This document shows positions 22,893 to 63,248 of a DNA stretch of 64,000 nucleotides, piece by piece. The notes under the pieces were generated by a model. It saw only the letters and a list, made by a program, of their open reading frames with translations. It was not told the origin of the DNA and did no database searches. This DNA is from Alphaproteobacteria bacterium (GTDB lineage: Bacteria; Pseudomonadota; Alphaproteobacteria; Rs-D84; CACZYB01): NCBI GenBank assembly GCA_017938435.1, contig JAGBBO010000008.1, forward strand, positions 74,525 to 138,524. Reading direction: 5' to 3'. Position 1 is the stretch's first letter. Each line of letters opens with the position of its first letter. The position numbers were made by a program, and so were the translations under genes.

Positions 22893-25556
22893 ATGTCATC
22901 CATATCAATAATTATGCCGGTTTATAACAGAGAAAAATTTTTAGATAGAAGTGTTGGTTCTCTTATTTCTCAGACATTTAAAGATATAGAAATTATTTTG
23001 GTGGATGATGGTTCTGTTGATAATTCAGGAAAAATATTAGATAATTTTGCAAAACAAGATTCAAGGGTAAAAGTTTTTCATCAAAAAAACTCTGGTCCTG
23101 CAACTGCAAGAAATGTTGGTCTTGATAATGCAACAGGTGAATACATTATGTTTTGTGATAGTGATGACGCGTATGAACCAAATATGTGTGAGGTGATGTA
23201 TAAAACTATTTGTGAGAAACGGGCTGATTTAATTTTGTGTAGTGCAAAAAATGAGTATGGAACAGAACTTTATAAATTTAAAAAAAATTTATCTATAGTT
23301 GATGTTTTTTCAGATGTTGTATTGTGGAATAAAATTTTTAAAAAGTCGTTAATTGATAAGTATAATATAAGATTTCCTGATGGATATTTGAGTGATGATG
23401 ACTATTTTACTTTTGTGTATGCCTGTGTTTCAAAAAAGTATTATTTCACAAATAAAGTTTCATATTTTTATGTAACAGAAAATCCGGATGGTATTTGTTC
23501 TATGAGTTTAAAAAAGCCATCGAATCTTGCTGTGGAAAGTCATTTTTATGTAATAGAAGCTATTATTGATTTTTGTAAGAAAAATAATTTTTATAAAAAA
23601 TACAGAAAATATATTTATGACAAAATAAAAGAAACAGTATTTTATTTATCCTTAATAAATTACGATTATGAAAAATGTTTAAATTTATTGTTAAAATTTT
23701 TGGAAAAAACTGATTTTTCAACTAAGGAAAAAGATAAGGTTGTAAAAATCTATTCAACCTATAGACCTAGGTTGCATTATGAATATCCTGTTAAGCTGGA
23801 TAATAGTGCAAAAAATATAGTATTTTGTGTCGATTATTGTTATTTGAATTATTTATTTACCACAATAAGATCGTTGTGCAAAAATGCAAATAAACAATAT
23901 AAGTATGATGTATATATAGTTTATACAAACGGTCTTTCGTATCCATATTTTGAAAAGTTTTGGCATGAATTTGAAAAATATAAAAATATTACTTTGCATT
24001 TTTGTAATATTTCGGATTTGTATAATAAATATTGTGATGAAAAATCTTTTTATCAAGTTGGAAGAATTCCAGCCGTTGGATCGTATAGGTTGTTTTTATC
24101 AAAAATTTTTGATGGTGAAAAAATCCTTTATTTAGATAGTGGTGATATAATTGTAAATAAAGATGTTGCTGAATTTTTTAATCTTGAACTTAAAAATAAT
24201 ATTATTGCTGCGGTAAAGGATTTTGTTTTTCCAAGGATTGATTTTAAAAATACAGTTTTGGATAAAGATATGCTTTCGCCTTTTTTACAAAAGGTTGGAT
24301 ATAATGATTATGGAAATTATATAAATTCTGGGGTCCTTTTAATTAACCTTAAAGAATATAATAAATGTTTTGATGGATTTTTAAAATGTATGTATGAAAA
24401 ATCTTCGAATATGGATCAAGATATTTTAAATTATGTTATTCCAAAATCACGAATTTTGTTTTTATCGACTGCATATAATTTTCAGATAGGTTCTATTGAT
24501 TTGGTAGAAAAATTTGATAAAGAATATGCTGAATTTTATAAAAAATCTAATCTGAAAAATTCTTTTATAATTCATTATACAAGGGATAAAAAGCCATGGA
24601 AGTTTTATTTGAAATGGAATAATATTTATTTTTGGAAATATGCTTGGGTGTATTTTTTTAGATATATTTGGGTTTATAAAGATCTTAAACTTTCTGGTGA
24701 TGCAATATTATCTTTTGTTTATAATACAGGTAGTGAAAATGCAAATGTGGAAGTTGTAAAAGAACCAAGATTTTCATCAATTCGGGAAACTATGTTTGGT
24801 GAGGTTAAACACAATAATGGAATATGTGTGTGGGAGCCGTCTTTGTTTGTTAAAATGAAGGTTAGGGCAAAAGGAAATGGAAAAATTCATATAGTATTGT
24901 CTGGGACTGATAAAAAATATATATATTACAATAAATTGATTGTTAATGAGAAAGTTTTGCTTAATAAAATTCTTCCTGTAAATCAATATAATACTACTGA
25001 ATTTTTGATGCCAGTAAAAGATGGGGAAGTTATTGATTTGTATATTCAAAAATCATCGTTAAGATTTATTGGTTTTTTGAAAAGAATTGTGTTATGTATT
25101 AAACGACTTTTTGCTTCTAAAAATAAAAATTTTTCATTGAATATATTTGCTTTGAATACTCAATCTTTTGAGAATAAAGTTGACGTGTTGGATGAAAATA
25201 GAACTAATGTTTTATGGTTGGATTATCCAAAGTGGCTTTCAAATGAATGGGAAAATGGGGCCTTTATTGCAACAAAATCAAGATATTGTTCTTTTGATGT
25301 AAGGTTTATAAAGGATGGAATGTTTAAGTTAATACTTTCTACTTCGAAAGAGGATAAAATTGCGTATGTATCAAAGGTAGTTATGAATGATAATGTTATT
25401 TTAAATGGAATTTTTCCAGTGTCTTATTTCAAAAGAGTAAATCTTATGTTCCCTGTGAATAATGGGGATATAAAACGAATTAAGGTTTATGGTAAAAAGC
25501 ATAGTATTATTGGCTTTATTAAAAACTTTTTCATTAAAGAAAATTATAAAGAATAA
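22893..25556 (+). CDS. multidomain glycosyltransferase: GT2 (N-terminus) + GT8 (LgtC/RfaJ-like) + two C-terminal ~130-aa repeats
   Basis: 887 aa. GT2 motifs (IIMPVYNREKFL, VDDGSVDNS, CDSDD). GT8 motifs (YLDSGDIIV, NSGVLLINL, DQDILNYV, HYTRDKKPW). The C-terminal repeats both end in ...IGFIK. Confidence 0.75.
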   Translation: MSSISIIMPVYNREKFLDRSVGSLISQTFKDIEIILVDDGSVDNSGKILDNFAKQDSRVKVFHQKNSGPATARNVGLDNATGEYIMFCDSDDAYEPNMCEVMYKTICEKRADLILCSAKNEYGTELYKFKKNLSIVDVFSDVVLWNKIFKKSLIDKYNIRFPDGYLSDDDYFTFVYACVSKKYYFTNKVSYFYVTENPDGICSMSLKKPSNLAVESHFYVIEAIIDFCKKNNFYKKYRKYIYDKIKETVFYLSLINYDYEKCLNLLLKFLEKTDFSTKEKDKVVKIYSTYRPRLHYEYPVKLDNSAKNIVFCVDYCYLNYLFTTIRSLCKNANKQYKYDVYIVYTNGLSYPYFEKFWHEFEKYKNITLHFCNISDLYNKYCDEKSFYQVGRIPAVGSYRLFLSKIFDGEKILYLDSGDIIVNKDVAEFFNLELKNNIIAAVKDFVFPRIDFKNTVLDKDMLSPFLQKVGYNDYGNYINSGVLLINLKEYNKCFDGFLKCMYEKSSNMDQDILNYVIPKSRILFLSTAYNFQIGSIDLVEKFDKEYAEFYKKSNLKNSFIIHYTRDKKPWKFYLKWNNIYFWKYAWVYFFRYIWVYKDLKLSGDAILSFVYNTGSENANVEVVKEPRFSSIRETMFGEVKHNNGICVWEPSLFVKMKVRAKGNGKIHIVLSGTDKKYIYYNKLIVNEKVLLNKILPVNQYNTTEFLMPVKDGEVIDLYIQKSSLRFIGFLKRIVLCIKRLFASKNKNFSLNIFALNTQSFENKVDVLDENRTNVLWLDYPKWLSNEWENGAFIATKSRYCSFDVRFIKDGMFKLILSTSKEDKIAYVSKVVMNDNVILNGIFPVSYFKRVNLMFPVNNGDIKRIKVYGKKHSIIGFIKNFFIKENYKE

Positions 25557-25626
25557 GAATAAATTCTTGATATTTAAGATTATATTTATTACAATTCCCT
25601 TTATAAGGAAAAGGGGTTTTTTTATT

Positions 25627-27018
25627 ATGTCTTTTATTTTAAGTGTAATTTTTTGCTTGTTTGTTTTTGAAACACCTGTATTTGCTGAGGATGTAAAAAG
25701 TAGTGAAAATGTAAATGAAATATCGCTCAAAAGTGATAAAAAATTACAAAAAGATAGTGAAACAATTTCCCTTAATCCAATACAAATTATCAATCTTGCA
25801 AAAAAGTTTATTGAAGAAAAAAATTATGCTGGGGCAAGAATTCTTCTTACAAAATCACCATTTAATGTTAAGGAACTTGAAATAGAAAGGTTGCATTTGA
25901 TTGCAACTCTTGATGTCGTGGAAGGTAAAATTGATGATGCTATTGAAATTTATAGGTTTATTTTGGATTATCAACCAAATATTCCAAGTATTCGTTTAAA
26001 ATTGGCGGAACTTTATTTATTGCAAGGTTCTTATTATAAGGCTGATTATCATTTTAGACTTGCAGCAACAGATAAAACTTTGCCAACGGAAGTTCAAAAG
26101 AATATTGCAATGGCTCTTTATTTTGTGCGTCAAAATAAAAACTGGAATTTTTGGTTCAATTTTGGTGCTGCACCTGATAACAACATAAATAATGCAACTA
26201 ATAATAGTTATTGTTTACCTTCTACTGGCTGGTGTTCTTCTAATGATAAAGAAAAAGCTGTTGGTTTGAATGTTTCATTTGGGGGAAATTATGAATTTAA
26301 ACTTTCGGACAGGTGGCGTTTAAGAAACGAGGGAGTTGTTTATACTTCGAAATATAATAAAAGCGAATATGATGATTTATATTTAAGTTATGTTTTTGGT
26401 GGTAAATATGTTTGGCAAAGGGGAGATGTTTTCTTTGGCCCTAGTGTATCCCGTCGTTGGCTTGATCATCAGCCATACAACAGGACTTTTGGAGGAAGAG
26501 TTGATTTAGATTATGATTTTACCAAGCATCTTTCTGGTGGGATAAGTGGTTATTTTACACCTACTTATTATGATGATTATTCTGATATATTGGATGGTGA
26601 TGTTTATGGTTCAAGGGCAAGACTTTTTTATACTTTTGATTCTTCAAAATACCTTGCATTTAAAATTGGATACGAGCGTGAAAATACAAAAGATAAAAGA
26701 TATGCAAATGTGAAAAAATCTTATGCTATTGGTTTTGGAGCTGAACTTGGTTGGGGATTTTCTATGTATATAGAACCATCAATTCAATATACTGATTATA
26801 AGGATGAAAAAGCTGTAATGAGGGATTTATACGTTTATGATTATATTGTAGAGTCGGATGTGACACGCAAGTATATGCTTTCACTTTCCAATCGTAATAT
26901 AAAACTTTGGGGATTTGTGCCAACAATTACTTATGTTTATACTGATAAAACTTCAAATGTATGGCAAAAGGAATATTCAAAATCGACTGTGGAATTTACT
27001 GTTAATCAAAGATTTTAA
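25627..27018 (+). CDS. outer-membrane TPR + beta-barrel protein, candidate Slam (surface lipoprotein assembly modulator, DUF560-like)
   Basis: Start refined to the ATG at 25627 (RBS aaggaaaagg; signal peptide MSFILSVIFCLFVFETPVFA). About 140 aa of TPR-like helices, then an aromatic-rich beta-strand region ending in a terminal Phe. A TbpB-like lipoprotein lies 0.9 kb away. Confidence 0.55.
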   Translation: MSFILSVIFCLFVFETPVFAEDVKSSENVNEISLKSDKKLQKDSETISLNPIQIINLAKKFIEEKNYAGARILLTKSPFNVKELEIERLHLIATLDVVEGKIDDAIEIYRFILDYQPNIPSIRLKLAELYLLQGSYYKADYHFRLAATDKTLPTEVQKNIAMALYFVRQNKNWNFWFNFGAAPDNNINNATNNSYCLPSTGWCSSNDKEKAVGLNVSFGGNYEFKLSDRWRLRNEGVVYTSKYNKSEYDDLYLSYVFGGKYVWQRGDVFFGPSVSRRWLDHQPYNRTFGGRVDLDYDFTKHLSGGISGYFTPTYYDDYSDILDGDVYGSRARLFYTFDSSKYLAFKIGYERENTKDKRYANVKKSYAIGFGAELGWGFSMYIEPSIQYTDYKDEKAVMRDLYVYDYIVESDVTRKYMLSLSNRNIKLWGFVPTITYVYTDKTSNVWQKEYSKSTVEFTVNQRF

Positions 27019-27884: not shown

Positions 27885-29774
27885 TTATTTTTTCTTTGCA
27901 CCGAAGGAAATACCAAATTTAATAGATCCACTTTCACCATTTTCATCTATCCAATCATGTGTTTCACCTTGGAATTGTCCAATAACTTCGGTTGGATTAT
28001 TTGCGCCATAGTAGGCTGTTGTTAAATTCTTGTTTTGTAGAGCTGTATCTAAGTCAGTGATTTTTCCTTCATCTTCTGTCATAAAGTGCTCTTTTACATT
28101 ATCAGCAATATCTTTGTTATCAGCAGTAAATGTTGCAGATTTTATGGAGCCATTTTCTGTATCAACATTGATATCATACCAATTATCAAATTTGAATTGG
28201 ATATTTTCTGCTTTATTTTCTGCATCCTTAACAGTTAAGTCAACAGTTCCAGCCAAATCCATAGAAGAGTCGTTGCCATTATGAATATTTTCTATTACTT
28301 GACCAACGGCAGTTCCTGTAAATTTTGTTCCGTTTTCTACTTTTGTAATATCGGATTTGTAATAATCATTTCCGCCATTGATTAAGTAGTAATAATATTC
28401 GTTTTCATGAGATACAGGAATATCAAGTGTGGCTTTTACATATCCAAATTGTGTATATGATAAATTAGCACTTGCACCACCAAGGACAAGGTCATAATTT
28501 ACAACAAAGTTGTTATTTTCCTTTTCAACTTTTAATTTATAACCATTGCCAAGGTCAACGAAACCTTTATTAAAATCAGTTTCAGAAATACCTTCTAAAA
28601 GTAATTTTTTAACCTTGTCAAAGTCAGCTGAACTTTCTTCATCTTTACCAATTAACGCACTTAAAAATTCGAAATCAGCACCTTCCCAATCATCAGGTCT
28701 TGACTGATTGATATAGTTAGCAAGCTCTTCAAATTTTGTTATATTGCTAACATCTGTTTTAACATTTGCATCAGTGAATATTTGATTTGATGTAGTTCTA
28801 TCCAATACACTTGTCTTTGCTGTTCCATCTTCATTTGTTATTATATTACCGTCTTTATCATACAAAAATTCGGTTCCTGTAACACCAAGAAGAGAGTTAT
28901 CTTTATAAATGCTTAAAACATTCATCTTTGTTGTTTCAGATTTACGACCAGATACAATTTTTGTTTTTTCATCTTGTTTTAAATCTTTCAATTCAAATGT
29001 TTTTGAAATATCAGTTATACGATTATTGTTATCATATTCATATAATTTTAATTCTACAGCAACAGCATTTCCATTTTCATCAGTAACAAATTTTAATTCT
29101 GGATCTTTGTCAGCGTCGGAAGCAATAACAGCGGTTAATCCCCATTTGAAATCAGTGTCAAGTTTGAATGATTTTGCTTGGAATGTTGTTTCTTTTGCCT
29201 CAACACTTTCTTTTATTTTATCTAATTTTGAGATAAAAGTATCAAGAACTTTGTCTGCTTCTTTTGTAATATTTTCAGCTTCTTCTTTGCTAACAAAAAT
29301 AGAAACACCTTCTTTGATTACATTTGTAAGGATATCATCTTGCTTTTTTTCGGTAAATTTTTCAGCAATTTTTTCTAGTTTATCTTGTGCAGATTTAAGC
29401 CATTTTGCATAGATTTGAATAAGGTTATATTTCATTTCTGTTTCTGTTAATTCAGATGACTTTTTCCAGTTTGTAGTTGTTGCACGACGATGAGATTTTG
29501 CACTGCGATTTGTATTTTCATCAGTTGATGAGAAAATTTCATTATCTATTTCAACTATGGTATCATAGTTTGAAGTATCTATTTCATCACCGATATTTTG
29601 TTCTGCTTTTGCAATGATATCTTTTGAATTATCTTTTTCCACAGCAAGTTTTTGTTTTGATTGTTCGCGAATATTAACGGTTGTAGAACTAGGCAATGTA
29701 GAAACAGGGGAATTTCCACCACCACAAGCAGTAAGTGTTAAAAGCAATACAGTTAAACTAACTTTATTTTTCAT
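27885..29774 (-). CDS. surface lipoprotein with TbpB/fHbp-like C-terminal handle-barrel domain (candidate Slam-dependent SLP)
   Basis: 629 aa. Lipobox LTACGGGNS. Long charged coiled-coil-like middle region. The C-terminus carries the TbpB_B_D-like signatures (SYTQFGYV...YYYYLINGG...GTKFTGTAVGQV... and terminal GSIKFGISFGAKKK). Confidence 0.6.
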   Translation of the reverse strand: MKNKVSLTVLLLTLTACGGGNSPVSTLPSSTTVNIREQSKQKLAVEKDNSKDIIAKAEQNIGDEIDTSNYDTIVEIDNEIFSSTDENTNRSAKSHRRATTTNWKKSSELTETEMKYNLIQIYAKWLKSAQDKLEKIAEKFTEKKQDDILTNVIKEGVSIFVSKEEAENITKEADKVLDTFISKLDKIKESVEAKETTFQAKSFKLDTDFKWGLTAVIASDADKDPELKFVTDENGNAVAVELKLYEYDNNNRITDISKTFELKDLKQDEKTKIVSGRKSETTKMNVLSIYKDNSLLGVTGTEFLYDKDGNIITNEDGTAKTSVLDRTTSNQIFTDANVKTDVSNITKFEELANYINQSRPDDWEGADFEFLSALIGKDEESSADFDKVKKLLLEGISETDFNKGFVDLGNGYKLKVEKENNNFVVNYDLVLGGASANLSYTQFGYVKATLDIPVSHENEYYYYLINGGNDYYKSDITKVENGTKFTGTAVGQVIENIHNGNDSSMDLAGTVDLTVKDAENKAENIQFKFDNWYDINVDTENGSIKSATFTADNKDIADNVKEHFMTEDEGKITDLDTALQNKNLTTAYYGANNPTEVIGQFQGETHDWIDENGESGSIKFGISFGAKKK

Positions 29775-45606: not shown

Positions 45607-46572
45607 TTATGCCTCCTTATTTTCTTTTAAACTATTTATGATAAATTTTATTGTTGGATAATAATATCCTGTTAAAAGTGTGCCAATTAACATAATTATA
45701 TAAAGTCCAGAAAGTCCGCCAATTATAGCTATTTGTAATCCTTGGGCTATCATATAAAAATTTCCGTATGTTTCAATAGTTGTATCATTTTTTTCAATAA
45801 AGAAGAAAAGGCTTGTTAGTATGCTGAAAATATAAAGCAAACTTAATGCAATTTGAGATTCTGTGAAAAAGAAGAATAACAATCCAGTTAAAGAAAATGT
45901 TATTAAACTTTTTTTAAGGAAATTTATTCCAGCAAATGTCTTTGGCTTTTTGAATAATATTTTTTTGTTCCTTAAAAACTTGAAACAAAGGAATGTTAAA
46001 ACTGTTGCATTTATTACGATTATTAACGCAAATTCAAATATTGTAAATAAATCAAGTTTTCCAGAAATACCTGTGCCTAAAACTTTTGGATAAAGGAATA
46101 AGATGAAAGATATTATAAGCAATATTATATTTAAAATGCCGGCGTATTTTACGAATATATTTGTTGTTTTTTCAATAATTCGGGTAAATTTTCTTTTTTT
46201 AAAGGATGTCAAAACCCAAACAAAAAATGCAAATACAAGCCATAAATTAAATCTATCTATTCCTGATATTAAATTAGAATTACATTCAATAGATTCTTTG
46301 TTAATACTTGGAACTTCGGTATAAGTAGAAACACCAGTCGATTTTACTTCTTCTTTTTTTTCTGGTTCTTGAACACTATCGCGTTTAAGTTCTGTTGTTT
46401 CAATATTTTCAGAATTTTCAGTAGAAATTTTTTCATTGGTTTCATTTGAAATAGTCGAATTTTCCATTATTTGAGATGGATTGTCATTCGCAATTTCATC
46501 AATATTTTGTGTAGTTTGTTGATCATCATTTTCAACAAAATTAACTGTGTAAAATGGATTGTTTTCGAACAT
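45607..46572 (-). CDS. hypothetical polytopic membrane protein with acidic N-terminal domain
   Basis: 321 aa. About 110 aa of acidic, Ser/Thr/Asn-rich sequence, then at least 6 TM helices. Its stop abuts the lgt start. Confidence 0.5.
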   Translation of the reverse strand: MFENNPFYTVNFVENDDQQTTQNIDEIANDNPSQIMENSTISNETNEKISTENSENIETTELKRDSVQEPEKKEEVKSTGVSTYTEVPSINKESIECNSNLISGIDRFNLWLVFAFFVWVLTSFKKRKFTRIIEKTTNIFVKYAGILNIILLIISFILFLYPKVLGTGISGKLDLFTIFEFALIIVINATVLTFLCFKFLRNKKILFKKPKTFAGINFLKKSLITFSLTGLLFFFFTESQIALSLLYIFSILTSLFFFIEKNDTTIETYGNFYMIAQGLQIAIIGGLSGLYIIMLIGTLLTGYYYPTIKFIINSLKENKEA

Positions 46573-49265: not shown

Positions 49266-49296
49266 GAAGGCAGGGCTTTGTTACCTGCCTTTATTT
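49266..49296. terminator. bidirectional rho-independent terminator
   Basis: aggcagggctttgttacctgcctttatttttt. Confidence 0.55.
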
Positions 49297-49856
49297 TTTG
49301 AAAAAATATCGATATAAAATTGTTGTTTAAGAATTTCTTTTTCTGTTTTTGGTAAATAGAATCGAGTAAGTTTATTTATATATTGTTCCAATGTTTGTTT
49401 TTTATGCATGTGATTTTTACAAAAATTAAGTTCGTTTTTATTATAATTTATTTCATTTTTTATTGTTTCTTTTTTATTGATTAGGCGATTAAGTTCATTT
49501 TTATATTTTAATACAGATGATTTTGAAAGGGTATTTGATGGATATTTTTTGATTATTGAAATTATTTCCTTTTTTAAATTTAAAGTTTTTTGGAACAATT
49601 CAATTTCTTCAATATTGTAAATCCTATTTATGCTGGAATTTAATTCTTTTTCAAATTTATTATAGATTTGGTTTGATTGTTTTGTTTTTATATATTGAAG
49701 TTCTTTTATTAAATAAGATTTTTCTTTTTCAAGATGTTTATATTTTATATTTATAATTTTTATTTCCGATAAAAGGTTTATTATTTTGTAATAATCTTCT
49801 TTTGAAATACTATCATTTTCGATGTTTTCAATTAAAATTTTATTAAAAGTTGTCAT
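49281..49856 (-). CDS. hypothetical coiled-coil protein
   Basis: 191 aa, Lys/Glu/Asn/Ile-rich with heptad-like repeats. No domain recognised. Confidence 0.45.
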   Translation of the reverse strand: MTTFNKILIENIENDSISKEDYYKIINLLSEIKIINIKYKHLEKEKSYLIKELQYIKTKQSNQIYNKFEKELNSSINRIYNIEEIELFQKTLNLKKEIISIIKKYPSNTLSKSSVLKYKNELNRLINKKETIKNEINYNKNELNFCKNHMHKKQTLEQYINKLTRFYLPKTEKEILKQQFYIDIFSKNKGR

Positions 49857-50031: not shown

Positions 50032-50559
50032 ATGAGTTTAAGAGATAGAATAGAAGATTTTATATATAATGTTGATGAAATTCAAATTGCTATCTTGTTA
50101 GTTTCTCTTATTATAGGTACTGCAACTGCTATAGGTGTTTCGTCTAATAAATCTGAATTAAAAAATACTAATTTTGAAATAAAAGAAGCTCCTGTTTTAG
50201 CAAAGTTTTCAGAACAAAATATTGGGGGAAATAGTCATAGTATTTCAACAAACTATGATTATAGATTTATTCTTGATATTGATGAAGATGGTCTTTATAA
50301 CAAAAATAAAGATATTGTTATTGCTGGTGATAATATTCCTTATTACCTTTTAGAAAAAGATAATAGAATAGTTTATCTTGAAGTAACTCGTAAAGATAAT
50401 GTTCTTAGAAGATCTCCTCTTGTTGTTAAAGATAAAGAAGAGAAGTCGCATTTGGTTTCTGAAGTTGAAGATTGTTGTAATGTTAAATTTTGGAAAAAAA
50501 ATGAATCATTTAATAAAACAAACCAAATTTTTAAAGATAAATATATAAATCAAAGATAA
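50032..50559 (+). CDS. hypothetical membrane-anchored protein, paralog B of the duplicated cassette
   Basis: 175 aa with an N-terminal TM helix. Paralogous to 1002-1583. Confidence 0.7.
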   Translation: MSLRDRIEDFIYNVDEIQIAILLVSLIIGTATAIGVSSNKSELKNTNFEIKEAPVLAKFSEQNIGGNSHSISTNYDYRFILDIDEDGLYNKNKDIVIAGDNIPYYLLEKDNRIVYLEVTRKDNVLRRSPLVVKDKEEKSHLVSEVEDCCNVKFWKKNESFNKTNQIFKDKYINQR

Positions 50560-54030: not shown

Positions 54031-54053
54031 TAACCCCTCCGAAGAGGGGATAT
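54031..54053. terminator. bidirectional rho-independent terminator
   Basis: taacccctccgaagaggggatat. Confidence 0.6.
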
Positions 54054-54054
54054 A

Positions 54055-55098
54055 TTATTTTCTTGTAAATGTTGTATATACATTAAGACCGCCACTTTTA
54101 CTTTTATAAAAATAAGAATCTGTATCAACGAAATTAAGTCCACCATTATGTACAGATGGATCATAGCTTCTTGGAAATTGATCCACTTCATCTTGAGAAC
54201 AATAGACTGTTACACTCCGATTTCCAAGATTATTAGTTGAAAAATCATAAGTAATAAGATAATAATCTGTAGTGCCATACCACTCTGTATCTAATGTTTT
54301 ATTAAATCCATCATTTGCCTCACTAATATATGTATAGGTTACAACAGAAGAATAAGTGTCATTCCCGTTATCGTTACATCCGCCAACCCTTCGTTTATAA
54401 GCATAAAGACTTAATTTACAATTATTACCACTTCTATAATATCCTGAGTTACATGCAAAATTACATGCATTATCTGTCCAATAACCACCGGCCTTTGTTC
54501 CGCAAGAATGACAGTCAGAACCGGTATAACCTGTATGACATGTATAACCGCAACCACTTGATGAAGACCAACCTGAATTACTTGGTTTTGAACATGCTGT
54601 ACAGGTTCCATTTGTCGTAGCAGAGCAATAATTATGTCCTGAACAAGACATAGCTTTTGATTCTGTTGTTGTTTCCGAATTTCCAGTTGGTGATGTAGAA
54701 CCTGCTTTTGTGCAATACTTTGTCACACTTCTTGTTACCGTTCCACAATTTCCACCCCATGTTCCATAATTTGTTGAAGAACAAGAACTACAACTTGATG
54801 CTCCTCTACCTGAGTATGTTCCTGCACCACAACTACTACATCCGGTTGAACCAGTTTGGTTTGCACCTTTGTTCGAGTAAGTTCCGGCGTTACATGTTGA
54901 GCAAGAACTTGCATTACCAGTTGAGTATTGACCGGCTGGACATTCCTTACATTTTTCTAATGTTCCATCACTGTAAGTTCCCGCAGCACAGCTTTGACAC
55001 ACGAACAAATATGGGTATTGCAAAGCGTGTGCATCTTGGTTTGTATATGTTGTTGCAATTGCAAAAATTGATGCAGTTGTTAGATTTCTTAACTTCAT
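54055..55098 (-). CDS. secreted Cys-rich repeat protein (CxxCxxGTYS ephrin-receptor-like / GCC2_GCC3-type repeats)
   Basis: 347 aa. Signal peptide. At least 4 tandem repeats of the C-x2-C-x-AG-T/Q-YS...C-x2-C type, plus further Cys-rich modules. The C-terminal ~120 aa are Cys-poor and Tyr/Thr-rich. Confidence 0.65.
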   Translation of the reverse strand: MKLRNLTTASIFAIATTYTNQDAHALQYPYLFVCQSCAAGTYSDGTLEKCKECPAGQYSTGNASSCSTCNAGTYSNKGANQTGSTGCSSCGAGTYSGRGASSCSSCSSTNYGTWGGNCGTVTRSVTKYCTKAGSTSPTGNSETTTESKAMSCSGHNYCSATTNGTCTACSKPSNSGWSSSSGCGYTCHTGYTGSDCHSCGTKAGGYWTDNACNFACNSGYYRSGNNCKLSLYAYKRRVGGCNDNGNDTYSSVVTYTYISEANDGFNKTLDTEWYGTTDYYLITYDFSTNNLGNRSVTVYCSQDEVDQFPRSYDPSVHNGGLNFVDTDSYFYKSKSGGLNVYTTFTRK

Positions 55099-55107
55099 AT
55101 TTTCCTC

Positions 55108-55440
55108 CTATTTTGAAATTTTTAATTTGTATTGACCTGCGGAACAATTCGATGCGCCACCCTTTACAAAATATCCTGTTGGGCATTTTGGTTTGCAACG
55201 GCGAAGTGCCGAGTCATAAACAAGGTATGTGGAATCTGCACATTTACAAGGTTGTCCTTTTATATAATCCGCCTCGAACACGCCACCACAAGTAGGGTAA
55301 CCATCGGGTGCCTGCCAATTTGGTTGATTTGTTGGAATAGGAACACAGTATTTGCTAAGTGCATTAGTGATTTGCCCGGATGTTGCGGAATATGCCGGAG
55401 CATTCGCAAGCAACAGAGCAATTAGAAGTAATTTTTTCAT
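55108..55440 (-). CDS. small secreted Cys-rich protein with the same CxxCPxGYF / CSAGQY repeat type
   Basis: 110 aa with a signal peptide (ANAPAYSA). Eight Cys residues. Lies 9 bp upstream of the larger Cys-rich gene, which has an RBS aggagg. Confidence 0.6.
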   Translation of the reverse strand: MKKLLLIALLLANAPAYSATSGQITNALSKYCVPIPTNQPNWQAPDGYPTCGGVFEADYIKGQPCKCADSTYLVYDSALRRCKPKCPTGYFVKGGASNCSAGQYKLKISK

Positions 55441-55494
55441 TCTCCCTCCATAATTTTATTTTTTTGGTTTTTGTTTGCTTTGTTTTTTCCCTTT

Positions 55495-55960
55495 ACCTCC
55501 TCAAAAGAGGGAGGGCGGAAAAACTACGAAAAATCCGCCCATGGTAGGACGAAGTAAACATGGAAAACTTCGCCCGTAAGGGAGGGTAAGAAGCGCTATC
55601 AGAATCTTACCCACAAAGTGGAATGTTAAACCAATTAAAAACATTCCTTGTTTTGCACAAAAACGCATACGCGAAATCGTTGCAAAAAATTTTGTAGTTG
55701 AAAGTTTGTTTGGATTTTTTCTTCCCGTCCTCACCGTCAACCACTTGCACCCAAGTAGCGGGGAGTTCAAGAATCACATAACGAGATTGTTTTGATTTTT
55801 AAGATTTCTCTTTGGACATATATCAAAACCTCCCCGCACGAGGCAGGGGAAATAGTGCCGTTATATGCACCATTTACTTTTGTTATGTAAGACTCTTGAC
55901 AGTCCCGCATCCATTTGGATACTTGATACAGTTTTCACCGTATCCAAATTTGATGTTAAC
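55495..55960. ncRNA. GC-elevated, hairpin-dense non-coding region; candidate structured RNA of unknown class (or decayed pseudogene)
   Basis: About 45% GC against ~30% background. No ORF longer than 89 aa. Many perfect stem-loops (GGGCGGA...TCCGCCC; GGGTAAGA...TCTTACCC; GGAATGTT...AACATTCC; CATCCATTTGGATAC...GTATCCAAATTTGATG). Confidence 0.3.
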
Positions 55961-56056
55961 CTAATAATAAAATAAAAACAAGAAATTTTTTAAATAGGGT
56001 TTATCTTGACACTTTTAGGAAAATAAAATACTCTTGTGCCAAAAGGAGTTTTTATT

Positions 56057-57085
56057 ATGCGTGTCGATTTATTTGATTTTGATTTACCTGAAAAATTTAT
56101 AGCAAAAGAACCTATGAAAAAGCGTGATGAAGCTAAATTATTACTTGTTCCTTCTTTGGAAAATAAAAAAGTAAAGGATTTGGTTGATATCTTGCCTAAG
56201 GATAGTTTGATTGTTTTTAATAATACAAAAGTTATCCCTGCAAGAATTTTTGGTGTTTGTAAGGATAGGCATTTTGAAGCCACATTACACAAAAATATTG
56301 CTCTTGATACATGGTTGGCTTTTATTAGAAATTCAAAAAAACTTCACGAAGGAGATGAAATTTCATTTGGCGATGGACTTTTGATTGGAACAGTAAAATC
56401 AAAACAAGGTGAAAGTGGTGTGGAACTTTGTTTTAACAAATCAGGGCATGAATTTTTTGATGTATTGGCAAAAATTGGAACTTTACCACTTCCTCCGTAT
56501 TTAAAAAGAGAAGTGACAAAGGAAGACTTTGAAAACTATCAAACCGTGTATGCAAAGATTGAAGGGGCAGTTGCTGCACCTACGGCTGGACTTCATTTTA
56601 CAGATGAACTTTTACAAAAATTAAAAGATAAAGGGATTGAAATGGTAGAACTTACTTTGCATGTTGGAGCAGGAACATTTCAGCCTGTGAAAGTAGAAGA
56701 TACAAAAGATCATAAAATGCATTCAGAATATGTTGTTATAACCGAAGAGGTCGCAAATAAAATAAATAATGCAAAAAAAGCAGGAAAGAAAATTATTGGT
56801 GTTGGAACTACTGTTTTAAGGTCATTAGAATCGGCTGTGGATAGTGATGGTTGGATACATCCATTTGCAAAGGAAACAGATATTTTTATTACCCCACCAT
56901 ATACTTTTAAATCTATTGATTATTTGATGACAAATTTCCATTTACCAAAATCAACTTTGTTTATGTTGGTGTGTGCTTTTGCAGGAATGGAGGAAATGAA
57001 AAAAGCGTATGAATTTGCAAAAGAAAATGATTATCGCTTTTATTCCTATGGTGATGCTTCACTTTTAAAACGAAAGGATAACTAA
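56057..57085 (+). CDS. queA: S-adenosylmethionine:tRNA ribosyltransferase-isomerase
   Basis: Start refined to MRVDLFDFDLPE. QueA motifs are present throughout (LPPYLKRE...TAGLHFT). Confidence 0.9.
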   Translation: MRVDLFDFDLPEKFIAKEPMKKRDEAKLLLVPSLENKKVKDLVDILPKDSLIVFNNTKVIPARIFGVCKDRHFEATLHKNIALDTWLAFIRNSKKLHEGDEISFGDGLLIGTVKSKQGESGVELCFNKSGHEFFDVLAKIGTLPLPPYLKREVTKEDFENYQTVYAKIEGAVAAPTAGLHFTDELLQKLKDKGIEMVELTLHVGAGTFQPVKVEDTKDHKMHSEYVVITEEVANKINNAKKAGKKIIGVGTTVLRSLESAVDSDGWIHPFAKETDIFITPPYTFKSIDYLMTNFHLPKSTLFMLVCAFAGMEEMKKAYEFAKENDYRFYSYGDASLLKRKDN

Positions 57086-61327: not shown

Positions 61328-62464
61328 ATGGATATAAGTGCGATAAAATATAATGATATAAAAAAGCCTATGCAACCAAATAAAATTGTGGTTGAAAATT
61401 TGTATAATAATACAAAGTATGCAGGTGTGGTTTTTGATTATATCCTTAACTTGCTTGAAAAAAGATTTAAAGAGCAGGTCGGTGGTAATTGTAAACTTAA
61501 GATGGGTCCTTTAAAAGCAGCACAAAGAGTTTATGAAAAAATAAAAGATGATGATATAAAAACTTCATCAAATGTTTTGGATTTTTTAAGAGCAACTTTT
61601 TCTTTTGATACGATAGAAGATTTATTAGATTTTGTGAATTTTACAAAAAGTTATTCTTTTACAAATGAAGATTTTAATGCAGATACTTTGAATAAAAAAG
61701 TTTTATCAAAGATAGAAAGTAGAACTAAAACAAATTTGATTCAGGCTGATAAAAATATTGGTATTGTTAATATCTATGAAAAATATGAAACTGCATTAAA
61801 TGCTTGTGAAGGAACTGATAAAGAACTTAGAGAAAAAATAAAAGAAAGAAGATCAAAAGAAGTTGAAGAATTTTCTAAAAGTTTCAACTTTTCAGAAGAA
61901 GAAATTAATTCTGAAGCTATGGCTACATTCACATCTTTTAGAAATTTTTTGAAAAATAATGAAAATCTCCCTATTGCAAATGTAGGTGTTTCAAACAGCT
62001 TTTCTTTGGGAATTGATAATGAAATAAAAACAAAATATCCTTTTTTAAAAGATAAATTAAAGGAAAGAAACAGTAATTATATGGATTTGAAATTCTATGT
62101 TTGTATTCCAATTCCTTTTAGTGAAAACAAAGATTATATGATTTGTGAAGTTATTACTACACTTAACTGTTTTGATAAAATTTACAATAAAACACATGTT
62201 TTGTTGGAACTTGAGAGGTCTGAATTTACCCCTCATAAACAAGATGATGTAACGGAAGCTGATTTTAAGGAAGGTATAAAATTAATAAAGCGTGCGATGT
62301 ATTTAGATGATGTAATTGAAAAATATAATAACGAACATCCAAATTCTATTCAGATAGTTCCTTATAAAAATGATAGGGAATATATCAATGAAACATTGAA
62401 TAAATTAGGTGATAAACTTAGTTTTTCGATGAGAATTTGCGGTTGTGAAAAATTTATGAGGTAA
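61328..62464 (+). CDS. hypothetical protein (first gene of an unknown two-gene operon)
   Basis: 378 aa, soluble. RBS aaggaaa. No recognisable motif. Ends ...CGCEKFMR. Confidence 0.5.
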   Translation: MDISAIKYNDIKKPMQPNKIVVENLYNNTKYAGVVFDYILNLLEKRFKEQVGGNCKLKMGPLKAAQRVYEKIKDDDIKTSSNVLDFLRATFSFDTIEDLLDFVNFTKSYSFTNEDFNADTLNKKVLSKIESRTKTNLIQADKNIGIVNIYEKYETALNACEGTDKELREKIKERRSKEVEEFSKSFNFSEEEINSEAMATFTSFRNFLKNNENLPIANVGVSNSFSLGIDNEIKTKYPFLKDKLKERNSNYMDLKFYVCIPIPFSENKDYMICEVITTLNCFDKIYNKTHVLLELERSEFTPHKQDDVTEADFKEGIKLIKRAMYLDDVIEKYNNEHPNSIQIVPYKNDREYINETLNKLGDKLSFSMRICGCEKFMR

Positions 62465-62468
62465 AAAA

Positions 62469-63248
62469 ATGGGTGACACATATTACATTCCTAAAATAGA
62501 AGTATCAAAAAAACAAATTAGTATTTGTCAAGATACTGATAAAAGAGAACTGTTATTTGCAAGAAATAAAACCTCTAATGGAGAATCTCCTTTGTTCTTT
62601 AAAAAAGGAGATGGTATTGACAAGTCAAAGTTAGTGGCGACTATGTCATATAAAAAAATTGGGCAAAAGTTGGCAAAGAAAATATCTTTGGTTAGCGGTT
62701 CTGACTTTTTCTATAAATATGATAAAAAAACAGGTTATTTTGATAAACAAAGAAGTTTGATAAGTCCTTTTGGTAATGAATATTCTATATATAGTATGAG
62801 TATGAAAAAATTTTATTCTGAGCTTATTGATATTTTAAAAGTTCGTTTGACATTGGGATTTATTGAAAGTGATGATAAGACACAGTCTGCTGAATACTAT
62901 TTCAGAAATGCTCATAAATATATTCTTATGCGTAAATACAATTTTAATATTGAAGAATGTATTAACTTTGTAAATACAGTTGTGGCAAGATCTTATATTC
63001 CTGAGGAATTTTATGAAGGATTTTTAGCCGAGTTTAGAAAATCATTTTATGATGGCGAATTTTCAAAGGGTGAAATTTTGGAACGAGAAACCGAAGCAAA
63101 ACTTTCTCTTATGAATGAAAAAAATGGAAAAGTTGCGTTCGATGATATGAATCTTTATACAAAAATTATAAATGATATGAGTATTGAAAAGAATGAACGC
63201 AAAATGAATATGATAAGACTTCGTGAAGAAATGTTTAAACACCATTAA
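62469..63248 (+). CDS. hypothetical protein (second gene of an unknown two-gene operon)
   Basis: 259 aa. Starts 5 bp after the preceding stop. No recognisable motif. Confidence 0.5.
   Translation: MGDTYYIPKIEVSKKQISICQDTDKRELLFARNKTSNGESPLFFKKGDGIDKSKLVATMSYKKIGQKLAKKISLVSGSDFFYKYDKKTGYFDKQRSLISPFGNEYSIYSMSMKKFYSELIDILKVRLTLGFIESDDKTQSAEYYFRNAHKYILMRKYNFNIEECINFVNTVVARSYIPEEFYEGFLAEFRKSFYDGEFSKGEILERETEAKLSLMNEKNGKVAFDDMNLYTKIINDMSIEKNERKMNMIRLREEMFKHH

Follow-up and report, generated by a model that had tools for sequence, protein, structure and literature searches.

The variant-specific surface proteins (VSPs) of Giardia are CXXC-rich, variable extracellular proteins of a gut organism, encoded in multiple copies and ending in a transmembrane helix with a CRGKA tail. 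Repeats of the Ephrin_rec_like class (PF07699) are likewise regarded as eukaryotic, with an isolated bacterial case: YM304_37510 of Ilumatobacter coccineum, a lone bacterial Ephrin_rec_like protein that also has a HYR domain and has been treated as an isolated transfer (PMC6993872). Here we analyse a pair of genes, hereafter B and A, in a window of 64,000 nucleotides (the whole stretch of DNA under study; contig JAGBBO010000008.1, positions 74,525 to 138,524) from an uncultured, low-GC 'Alphaproteobacteria bacterium' of the ruminant gut, represented by a metagenome-assembled genome (MAG; J6J27). An earlier annotation made from the DNA letters, which we call the original prediction, had read the pair as an operon of two secreted proteins built from this repeat. 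We give an even chance to the reading that the locus is one copy of a leader-B-A cassette which makes a disulfide-stabilised extracytoplasmic complex of B and A, with a swappable C-terminal domain in A, under the control of a structured leader RNA.

Gene B (55440..55108, minus strand) encodes 110 aa and gene A (55098..54055, minus strand) a Cys-rich product of 347 aa, both predicted to be exported. The two open reading frames (ORFs) were found exactly where the original prediction had placed them, with an intergenic gap of 9 bp, and its two-gene operon therefore stands. In GenBank A is MBP3615626.1 (J6J27_01815) and B is MBP3615627.1 (J6J27_01820), both annotated as 'hypothetical protein'. A GGAGG-type Shine-Dalgarno sequence precedes each start codon (GGAGGGAGA at 55449..55441 for B, TAGGAGG for A), and both proteins begin with a signal-peptide-like N-terminus, read by eye as MKKLLLIALLLANAPAYSA|TS in B and MKLRNLTTASIFAIATTYTNQDAHA|LQ in A. 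The terminator ascribed to the operon was located by a terminator scan as a G+C-rich hairpin with T-runs on each strand (CCCCTCTTCGGAGGGG, 54034..54049, both strands); it is bidirectional and ends the B-A operon and the convergent amiC gene alike. Upstream of B lies a non-coding, strongly structured gap of 595 bp. Within it a consensus scan identified a putative sigma-70-like promoter (TTAAAA, 18 nt, TATTAT; 55964..55993, minus strand), whose boxes directly abut the conserved leader described below. By eye, -35/-10-like boxes stand in the same relative place in the related loci L056, L062, L068, L006 and L046, with 7-10 nt between them and the first hairpin of the leader.

Protein A contains 25 cysteines and four strict CxxCxxG[TQ]YS units, at residues 34, 50, 66 and 87, in agreement with the at least four copies originally counted. 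Tandem C-x2-C-x2-G-x-[YFW] units with regular cysteine spacing are thus present, and the four C..C..G.[YWF] matches were reached by none of 20,000 composition-preserving shuffles of A. No further copy of the motif occurs in the window on the strand and frame of the cassette, and two lone single matches elsewhere in the window (18046 and 60062) are chance-like. A recent origin of the repeats by DNA duplication was ruled out, as DNA-level remnants amount to just 12 nt. The four units, followed by a CSSC cap, make up residues 34-110 (54769..54999, minus strand), of Ephrin_rec_like / TNFR-like type.

The assignment of these units to a class depends on the family as a whole. A alone misses the PF07699 threshold, scoring 21.1 bits against a gathering score of 23.1 (E = 2.8e-4, 2-4 stretches), because it has only four short units; it likewise stays below the gathering scores of TNFR_ELAPOR1_6th (21.9 against 33.2 bits) and NCD3G (22.7 against 38.9). 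Among 15 aligned relatives, PF07699 is matched at E <= 0.01 by 13 (best 4.6e-23) and TNFR_ELAPOR1_6th by 14, which settles the repeat class of A. TNFR_c6 (PF00020) has no match in A and is matched by just one of the 15 relatives (2.8e-4). Searched against PDB sequences, a profile of the A family retrieved the Chlamydomonas mastigoneme protein Mst1 (1e-28, over 6-7 stretches), whose entry is titled 'ephrin type A/B receptor-like domain-containing protein', ELAPOR1 (4e-9) and the cysteine-rich domain of CaSR (about 0.01). The ephrin-receptor/GCC2_GCC3-like class originally proposed is therefore right at the level of the repeat, and of the profiles named alongside it PF07699 holds for the family and fails narrowly for A by itself, whereas TNFR_c6 fails for A. 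The fold resembles solved domains of the Ephrin_rec_like class; a Foldseek search with the whole elongated chain of A gave nothing significant. The AlphaFold 2 (AF2) model of A has a predicted local distance difference test score (pLDDT) of 71.9.

The remainder of A has no relatives in Pfam or PDB-sequence searches. Residues 111-227 (54418..54768, minus strand) form a family-specific Cys-rich middle region (WGGNCGTVTR..YCTKAGSTS..CSGH.YC..C..CSKP), which is 60-91% conserved among alphaproteobacterial family members and was modelled with a pLDDT of about 57-90. Residues 228-347 (54058..54417, minus strand) constitute a variable, swappable, beta-rich C-terminal domain with eight strands predicted in the AF2 model and a TFTRK end, for which no PDB sequence was found at E < 0.1. 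At least four unrelated types of C-terminal domain occur in the family. These unrelated types end alike in [FWY]-[TE]-R-(I)-K (TFTRK, TWTRK, TYERK.., YTRIK; 54058-54072 in A), a motif that may be a sorting signal or form a final strand common to them.

Protein B is of a different kind. Its mature form, of about 90 aa, contains 7 cysteines, C32, C51, C65, C67, C82, C86 and C99, all invariant in the alignment of the B family. The repeat was said to occur once or twice in B, and we found no C..C..G.[YWF] match in it, just the looser CKPKCPTGYF and NCSAGQY. When the profiles of the two families were aligned with each other in a single comparison, the result was not significant (hhalign probability 2.2%, E = 0.022), and the idea of B as a degenerate A repeat found no support. 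Since B lacks both the motif and a significant relationship to A, the description of two proteins built from the repeat is true of A and not of B. B has no Pfam or NCBIfam match; 11 homologues were retrieved by single-sequence search and 54 by profile, unnamed proteins of 85-170 aa, all derived from MAGs, and none of the 54 profile matches carries a Pfam domain or a name. B is thus a new family without a Pfam model.

Despite this lack of resemblance, B and A are consistently associated. At every locus with readable downstream sequence (the window, L056, L057, L061, L062, L066/67, L068, L028, L006, L026, L046 and L070) an A-like gene follows a B-like gene, with a spacing at loci other than the window of 10-34 bp, or of about 200-700 bp in L006, L026 and L046. 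The pair recurs in varied genome contexts, next to amiC/queA in the window and elsewhere next to dksA-trx, rpsT, efp, priA/gpmI or dnaJ/pepF. Moreover, the two are naturally fused in the 600-aa protein P0011, where A-type repeats directly follow a B-like N-terminus. In five complete close cassettes the number of cysteines is odd in both partners (7 in B; 25, 25, 25, 21 and 37 in A), and in the P0011 fusion it is even (60); this parity suggests an intermolecular disulfide between B and A. The context after A in L002 (1204-2007) and L057 (1947-2750) is dksA and then thioredoxin, an adjacency that is probably coincidental.

The cassette is multi-copy, and its copies are mosaics. The same MAG also encodes the A-like J6J27_05200 (444 aa) and the B-like J6J27_04550, and a second complete cassette of this MAG, with its leader, was read in L070 and L069, so that it holds at least two full cassettes and a further B-like gene. 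At least three A-like genes and one B-like gene occur in MAG IJ473, and a genome scan assigned ten loci to RUI239 and four to MAG035, often at contig ends. Identity to the window varies by segment: for leader module 1, leader module 2, B and A, in this order, it is 54, 89, 96 and 76% in L057, 69, 81, 62 and 56% in L062, and 81, 64, 68 and 64% in L068. Within A itself, P0004 is 92% identical in the N-terminal third, 60% in the middle and 29% in the C-terminal domain, the latter resembling that of P0006, and the number of repeats in the family ranges from 3 to 7 or more. Comparison of the copies thus indicates that segments are exchanged between cassettes. At L049 (5807-6100; MAG035, JAEDDP010000002.1) module 1 of the leader (51.6 bits with the covariance model introduced below) runs into a mature A-like ORF (…QVYMCQACPAGTYSDG), without module 2, a B gene or a signal peptide, and this copy would seem to be a pseudogene or to have arisen by recombination or deletion. 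As an observation apart, L046 (CAZHAL010000047.1, 'uncultured Bacteroidales') carries priA and module 1 (144 bits) together with a B-like gene (137 aa) and an A-like gene (223 aa) that are separated by a gap of 700 nt; its label is suspect because the cassette is alphaproteobacterial, and it is probably a binning error.

Most of the gap upstream of B is occupied by a conserved structured 5' leader of about 515 nt (55441..55955, minus strand), defined by folding and homology. Its minimum free energy (MFE) is -166.7 kcal/mol (z = -8.13), a stability equalled by none of 100 shuffles, and its GC content of 0.398 compares with 0.309 for the window; the large structured non-coding region of the original prediction is hereby corroborated. 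A leader profile built for nhmmer located it upstream of cassettes in eight further loci (L056, L064/65, L057, L062, L006, L046 and L049), and it is also present in L068 and L070. Rfam 15 gave no match at E <= 1 in window positions 55380-56120, a permissive Rfam scan of L057, L062, L065 and L068 returned chance-level matches outside the leader, and a gathering-level scan of the whole window retrieved a tRNA-Ser only. A coding function or leader peptide was ruled out: five homologues have 4-13 stops per frame and indels that are not multiples of three, and hence no conserved leader ORF exists.

The promoter-proximal part, module 1, has as its core a multi-helix junction (P1, P2, P3, a variable hairpin, P5, P6 and P7; 55758..55908, minus strand), delineated from folds and covariation. 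Independent MFE folds of six homologues recovered the same architecture, with the closing P1, a 9-bp P2 and a P5 of the form CCYC.../...GGGG. P2 reads UCAAGA/UCUUGA, UCGAAA/UUUCGA, UGACAA/UUGUCA, UCACAA/UUGUGA, UCAGAA/UUCUGA and UAGUUAA/UUAACUA in six sequences. A structure-blind MAFFT alignment of seven sequences has 90.6% of its cells paired, with compensatory changes on both sides at 16 of the 28 pairs, values that none of 500 shuffles reached. Sliding the partner strand by 1-3 columns left 34-59% of the cells paired and lowered the covariation score, 0.64 without the shift, to 0.20 or less. An alignment based on a covariance model (CM) gave the same result as the MAFFT alignment. Module 1 also contains invariant unpaired stretches. 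RNAalifold, applied to the MAFFT alignment, proposed an alternative pairing of an internal GGGGAG with a 3' CUCCCC, which would be either a pseudoknot or an alternative to P1/P5.

Members of the leader family score 112-145 bits with the covariance model (R1), and the second cassette of this MAG 133 bits. A search of 67 sources with the model added just L026 (E = 0.19) and L013 (E = 0.49), both weak candidates. The leader of L026 (4947-5420; JAAVBN010000007.1, 'Mgla_MAG_18') is diverged and shorter; downstream of it lie genes for a B-like protein of 116 aa and an A-like protein of 178 aa. By eye, the two ends of this leader can pair as P1/P2 (GGGAUUAGAAC ... GUUCUAAGCUCCCC), and the locus thus hints at a leader family wider than the model detects. 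A separate pattern scan of metagenomes for more leaders yielded three contigs only.

Module 2 (55441..55670, minus strand), defined by homology and folds, comprises five hairpins, an A/C-rich open linker and the Shine-Dalgarno sequence of B. It is 81-89% identical to its counterparts in L056, L057 and L062, even where the B and A proteins share just 41% and 31%; between the cassettes typified by the window and by L062/L070 the corresponding figures are 81% for the module and 31-41% for the proteins. Pairing of its hairpins H1 and H2 is kept by compensatory changes in L062, L065 and L068. A terminator scan located within it a terminator-like hairpin (TTCGTCC..GGGCGGA followed by T5; 55534..55553, minus strand) that competes with two flanking hairpins, the alternative pairings in MFE folds being GGGCGAAGU/ACUUCGUCC and GGGCGGA/UCCGCCC. 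From these folds, a four-segment attenuator formed by this hairpin and its flankers is possible. Beside these structures, an AT-rich inverted repeat of 27 nt (81% complementary; 55628-55654 / 55975-56001) brackets the promoter-proximal leader and could be due to chance; it was the only inverted repeat seen in a check for an invertible promoter. A covarying structure thus lies between a promoter-like site and a start codon, as in a generic structured cis-regulatory RNA, and the leader is a candidate for a new class of such RNAs without an Rfam entry.

Taken together, these features can be accommodated in the following model. A sigma-70-type promoter would start the leader of about 515 nt, in which the module 1 junction is followed by the module 2 hairpin array with its strong Shine-Dalgarno sequence, and the leader would probably set the expression level, or its dependence on conditions, in cis, at the level of transcription, translation or mRNA stability. 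From a single mRNA two proteins would be made, exported by the Sec pathway and folded oxidatively in the periplasm, where B and A most likely form one extracytoplasmic complex, maybe joined by an intermolecular disulfide. The repeats of A may act as a rigid, protease-resistant stalk and its variable C-terminal domain as the binding end, with B as an N-terminal cap or partner, and recombination between cassette copies would diversify the binding end.

Several observations weigh against this reading. Cysteine parity rests on five related cassettes and is broken by L028 (8 + 15 Cys), and the AF2 model of B has low confidence (pLDDT 58.7). The cassette encoding P0021 in L066 has no leader, its upstream gap of 187 nt (727-913) containing a terminator and a promoter-like AT-rich stretch, and none of the ten RUI239 loci matched the module 1 covariance model; the leader is therefore not obligatory. 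The high identity of leaders between copies could also stem in part from gene conversion and not from selection on RNA function. Finally, neither A nor B has a visible lipobox, transmembrane segment, known outer-membrane anchor or secretion signal, and both may therefore stay periplasmic.

The last point bears on the location and role of the proteins. If B and A were ordinary periplasmic Cys-rich proteins, engaged in metal or sulfide buffering, redox reactions or envelope structure and without an outside partner, their visible signals, which are Sec-type only, the envelope genes nearby (amiC, lgt) and the thioredoxin gene that adjoins the cassette in L002 and L057 would fit. We hold this to be unlikely, since multi-copy mosaics, swappable C-termini and a variable number of repeats would be odd for housekeeping periplasmic proteins, the family occurs in a narrow gut lineage only, and folds of this class are those of extracellular receptor stalks. 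A more elaborate version of the preferred model, in which B and A form a variable Cys-rich surface coat, is improbable in our estimation: a disulfide-linked B-A heterodimer, the split equivalent of P0011, would be exported beyond the periplasm and displayed at the surface or released, with a recombining binding domain and a sensing leader whose module 1 would be the sensor and module 2 the expression platform.

Quite doubtful, too, is the host-directed role towards which the original prediction leaned, in which A, acquired from a eukaryote and secreted, would bind a receptor or ligand of the host or of a protist as an adhesin or decoy. The repeat type is regarded as eukaryotic (PMC6993872), a Naegleria gruberi protein and giant multi-repeat proteins are among the nearest relatives that share the repeat alone, and the organism lives in animal guts, all of which would suit such a role. 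Ruminant gastrointestinal metagenomes contain identical copies of A and B, on 12-13 assembled contigs with lengths of up to 588 kb; the assemblies originate from a ruminant gut metagenome project (PMC8199421). Of the 'intracellular or host-associated' bacterium originally envisaged, the gut derivation is thus borne out by the ruminant gastrointestinal assemblies and MAGs, whereas the neighbouring genes, ordinary envelope and housekeeping genes (amiC, RNase E/G, queA, priA, recG, lgt, class A penicillin-binding protein, transketolase), give no sign of an intracellular lifestyle; nor was a secretion route past the outer membrane found.

The distribution of the repeat and the composition of A also argue against such mimicry. 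About a dozen full-length relatives of A with the middle domain were found, all in gut MAGs or metagenomes, and the A and B families show a narrow distribution within a gut lineage. The repeat alone returned 2,525 cluster representatives at E <= 1e-3, mostly giants of 1,000-8,000 aa with 10-40 stretches, the Naegleria gruberi protein being one of them. In species-representative MAGs a genome scan identified the repeat in 53 loci, whose MAG labels, taken as given, span many phyla and include Alphaproteobacteria, Fibrobacter, Bacilli, Gastranaerophilales, Flavobacteriales, Oligoflexia and Patescibacteria. The statement that the motif is rare in bacteria is consequently faithful to the literature (PMC6993872) and at odds with the MAG data. 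GC at third codon positions (GC3) is 0.172 in A and 0.16-0.22 in host and neighbour genes, and the higher overall GC of A comes from second positions (GC2), i.e. from amino-acid composition. A recent horizontal transfer from a eukaryote is therefore unsupported, and any transfer must be ancient. Furthermore, no relatives, eukaryotic or otherwise, are known for any part of B or for the middle and C-terminal domains of A.

Equally hard to credit is the view that the DNA upstream of B is not a cis-regulatory RNA and is instead a homology tract for gene conversion during cassette recombination, or an independent small RNA: the exchange of modules between cassettes, the direct junction of module 1 with a mature coding region in L049 and the terminator-like hairpins inside the region would fit it, but compensatory changes keep long-range helices whose strands lie about 170 nt apart in sequences that are 54-69% identical, which argues for selection on RNA structure and not on DNA identity alone, and promoter-like boxes stand directly upstream while the Shine-Dalgarno sequence of B follows without a strong terminator.

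Elsewhere in the window, a Slam / type 11 secretion outer-membrane protein with an N-terminal TPR_Slam is encoded at 25489-27018 (plus strand; PF04575 SlipAM, 125.9 bits). Next to it, at 27885-29774 (minus strand), lies the gene of a 629-aa protein without a Pfam match, with a lipobox (LTLTAC|GGG) and a C-terminal ...FGAKKK, and from their sequences the two genes look like a pair of a Slam and its dependent surface lipoprotein. The 3' end of a gene for an 887-aa fused GT2 + GT8 glycosyltransferase (22893-25556, plus strand) overlaps the start of the listed Slam ORF by 68 nt. A as a Slam cargo found no support, the Slam gene lying 28 kb away with its own lipoprotein and A having no lipobox; no similarity was detected between the Slam-associated lipoprotein and A, its C-terminal domain included. 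Near the cassette, Pfam returned nothing at E <= 1e-3 for five ORFs of 175-378 aa (61328-62464, 62469-63248, 50032-50559, 49281-49856 and 45607-46572).

The repeat class of A is thus a known one; no family has been described for B, for the leader RNA or for the middle and C-terminal parts of A. The published view of Ephrin_rec_like repeats as eukaryotic with isolated transfers contrasts with the lineage-specific, multi-copy bacterial families that we find in gut microbiomes. The new small partner family B is suggested by the fusion and by cysteine parity to act jointly with the repeat protein, and the large covarying leader without an Rfam entry provides a concrete candidate for a new cis-regulatory class. 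In uncultured, abundant gut Alphaproteobacteria, a variable, disulfide-rich extracytoplasmic system would be a plausible handle on interactions with the host, protists, phages or other bacteria.

Among described systems, the leader resembles riboswitches and other long structured leaders in its position between promoter and Shine-Dalgarno sequence, its multi-helix junction, its invariant unpaired stretches, its GC enrichment in an AT-rich genome and its competing hairpins near a T-run. Unlike riboswitches, it has no Rfam match, is much longer than most, consists of two modules and is missing from some cassettes, and the genes downstream of it give no hint of a ligand. With TNFR, NCD3G proteins (CaSR, T1R) and Eph receptors A shares a generic disulfide-ladder module only, and it is devoid of their ligand-binding or signalling domains. 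The cassettes of A and B recall Giardia VSPs in being multi-copy (at least two cassettes here, ten loci in RUI239), variable and CXXC-rich, with protease resistance a plausible common property; A differs from them in being bacterial and in ending in ...GGLNVYTTFTRK (TFTRK) without a hydrophobic C-terminal segment. Closest are the PF07699 proteins, such as Mst1 (PDB 8tx1/8wa2) and ELAPOR1 (9vqm), which like A consist of tandem CxxCxxGxY units and are extracytoplasmic, as predicted for A, and disulfide-rich. In contrast to them, A is bacterial and short, has four units only and falls 2 bits under the Pfam cut-off, has orphan domains in its middle and at its C-terminus, and shares its operon with a small partner protein, the two genes being preceded by a structured leader RNA. 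Like YM304_37510, finally, A is a bacterial protein with a repeat of 'eukaryotic' Ephrin_rec_like type, and unlike it A comes from a multi-copy family that is specific to its lineage and has a partner gene and a leader of its own.

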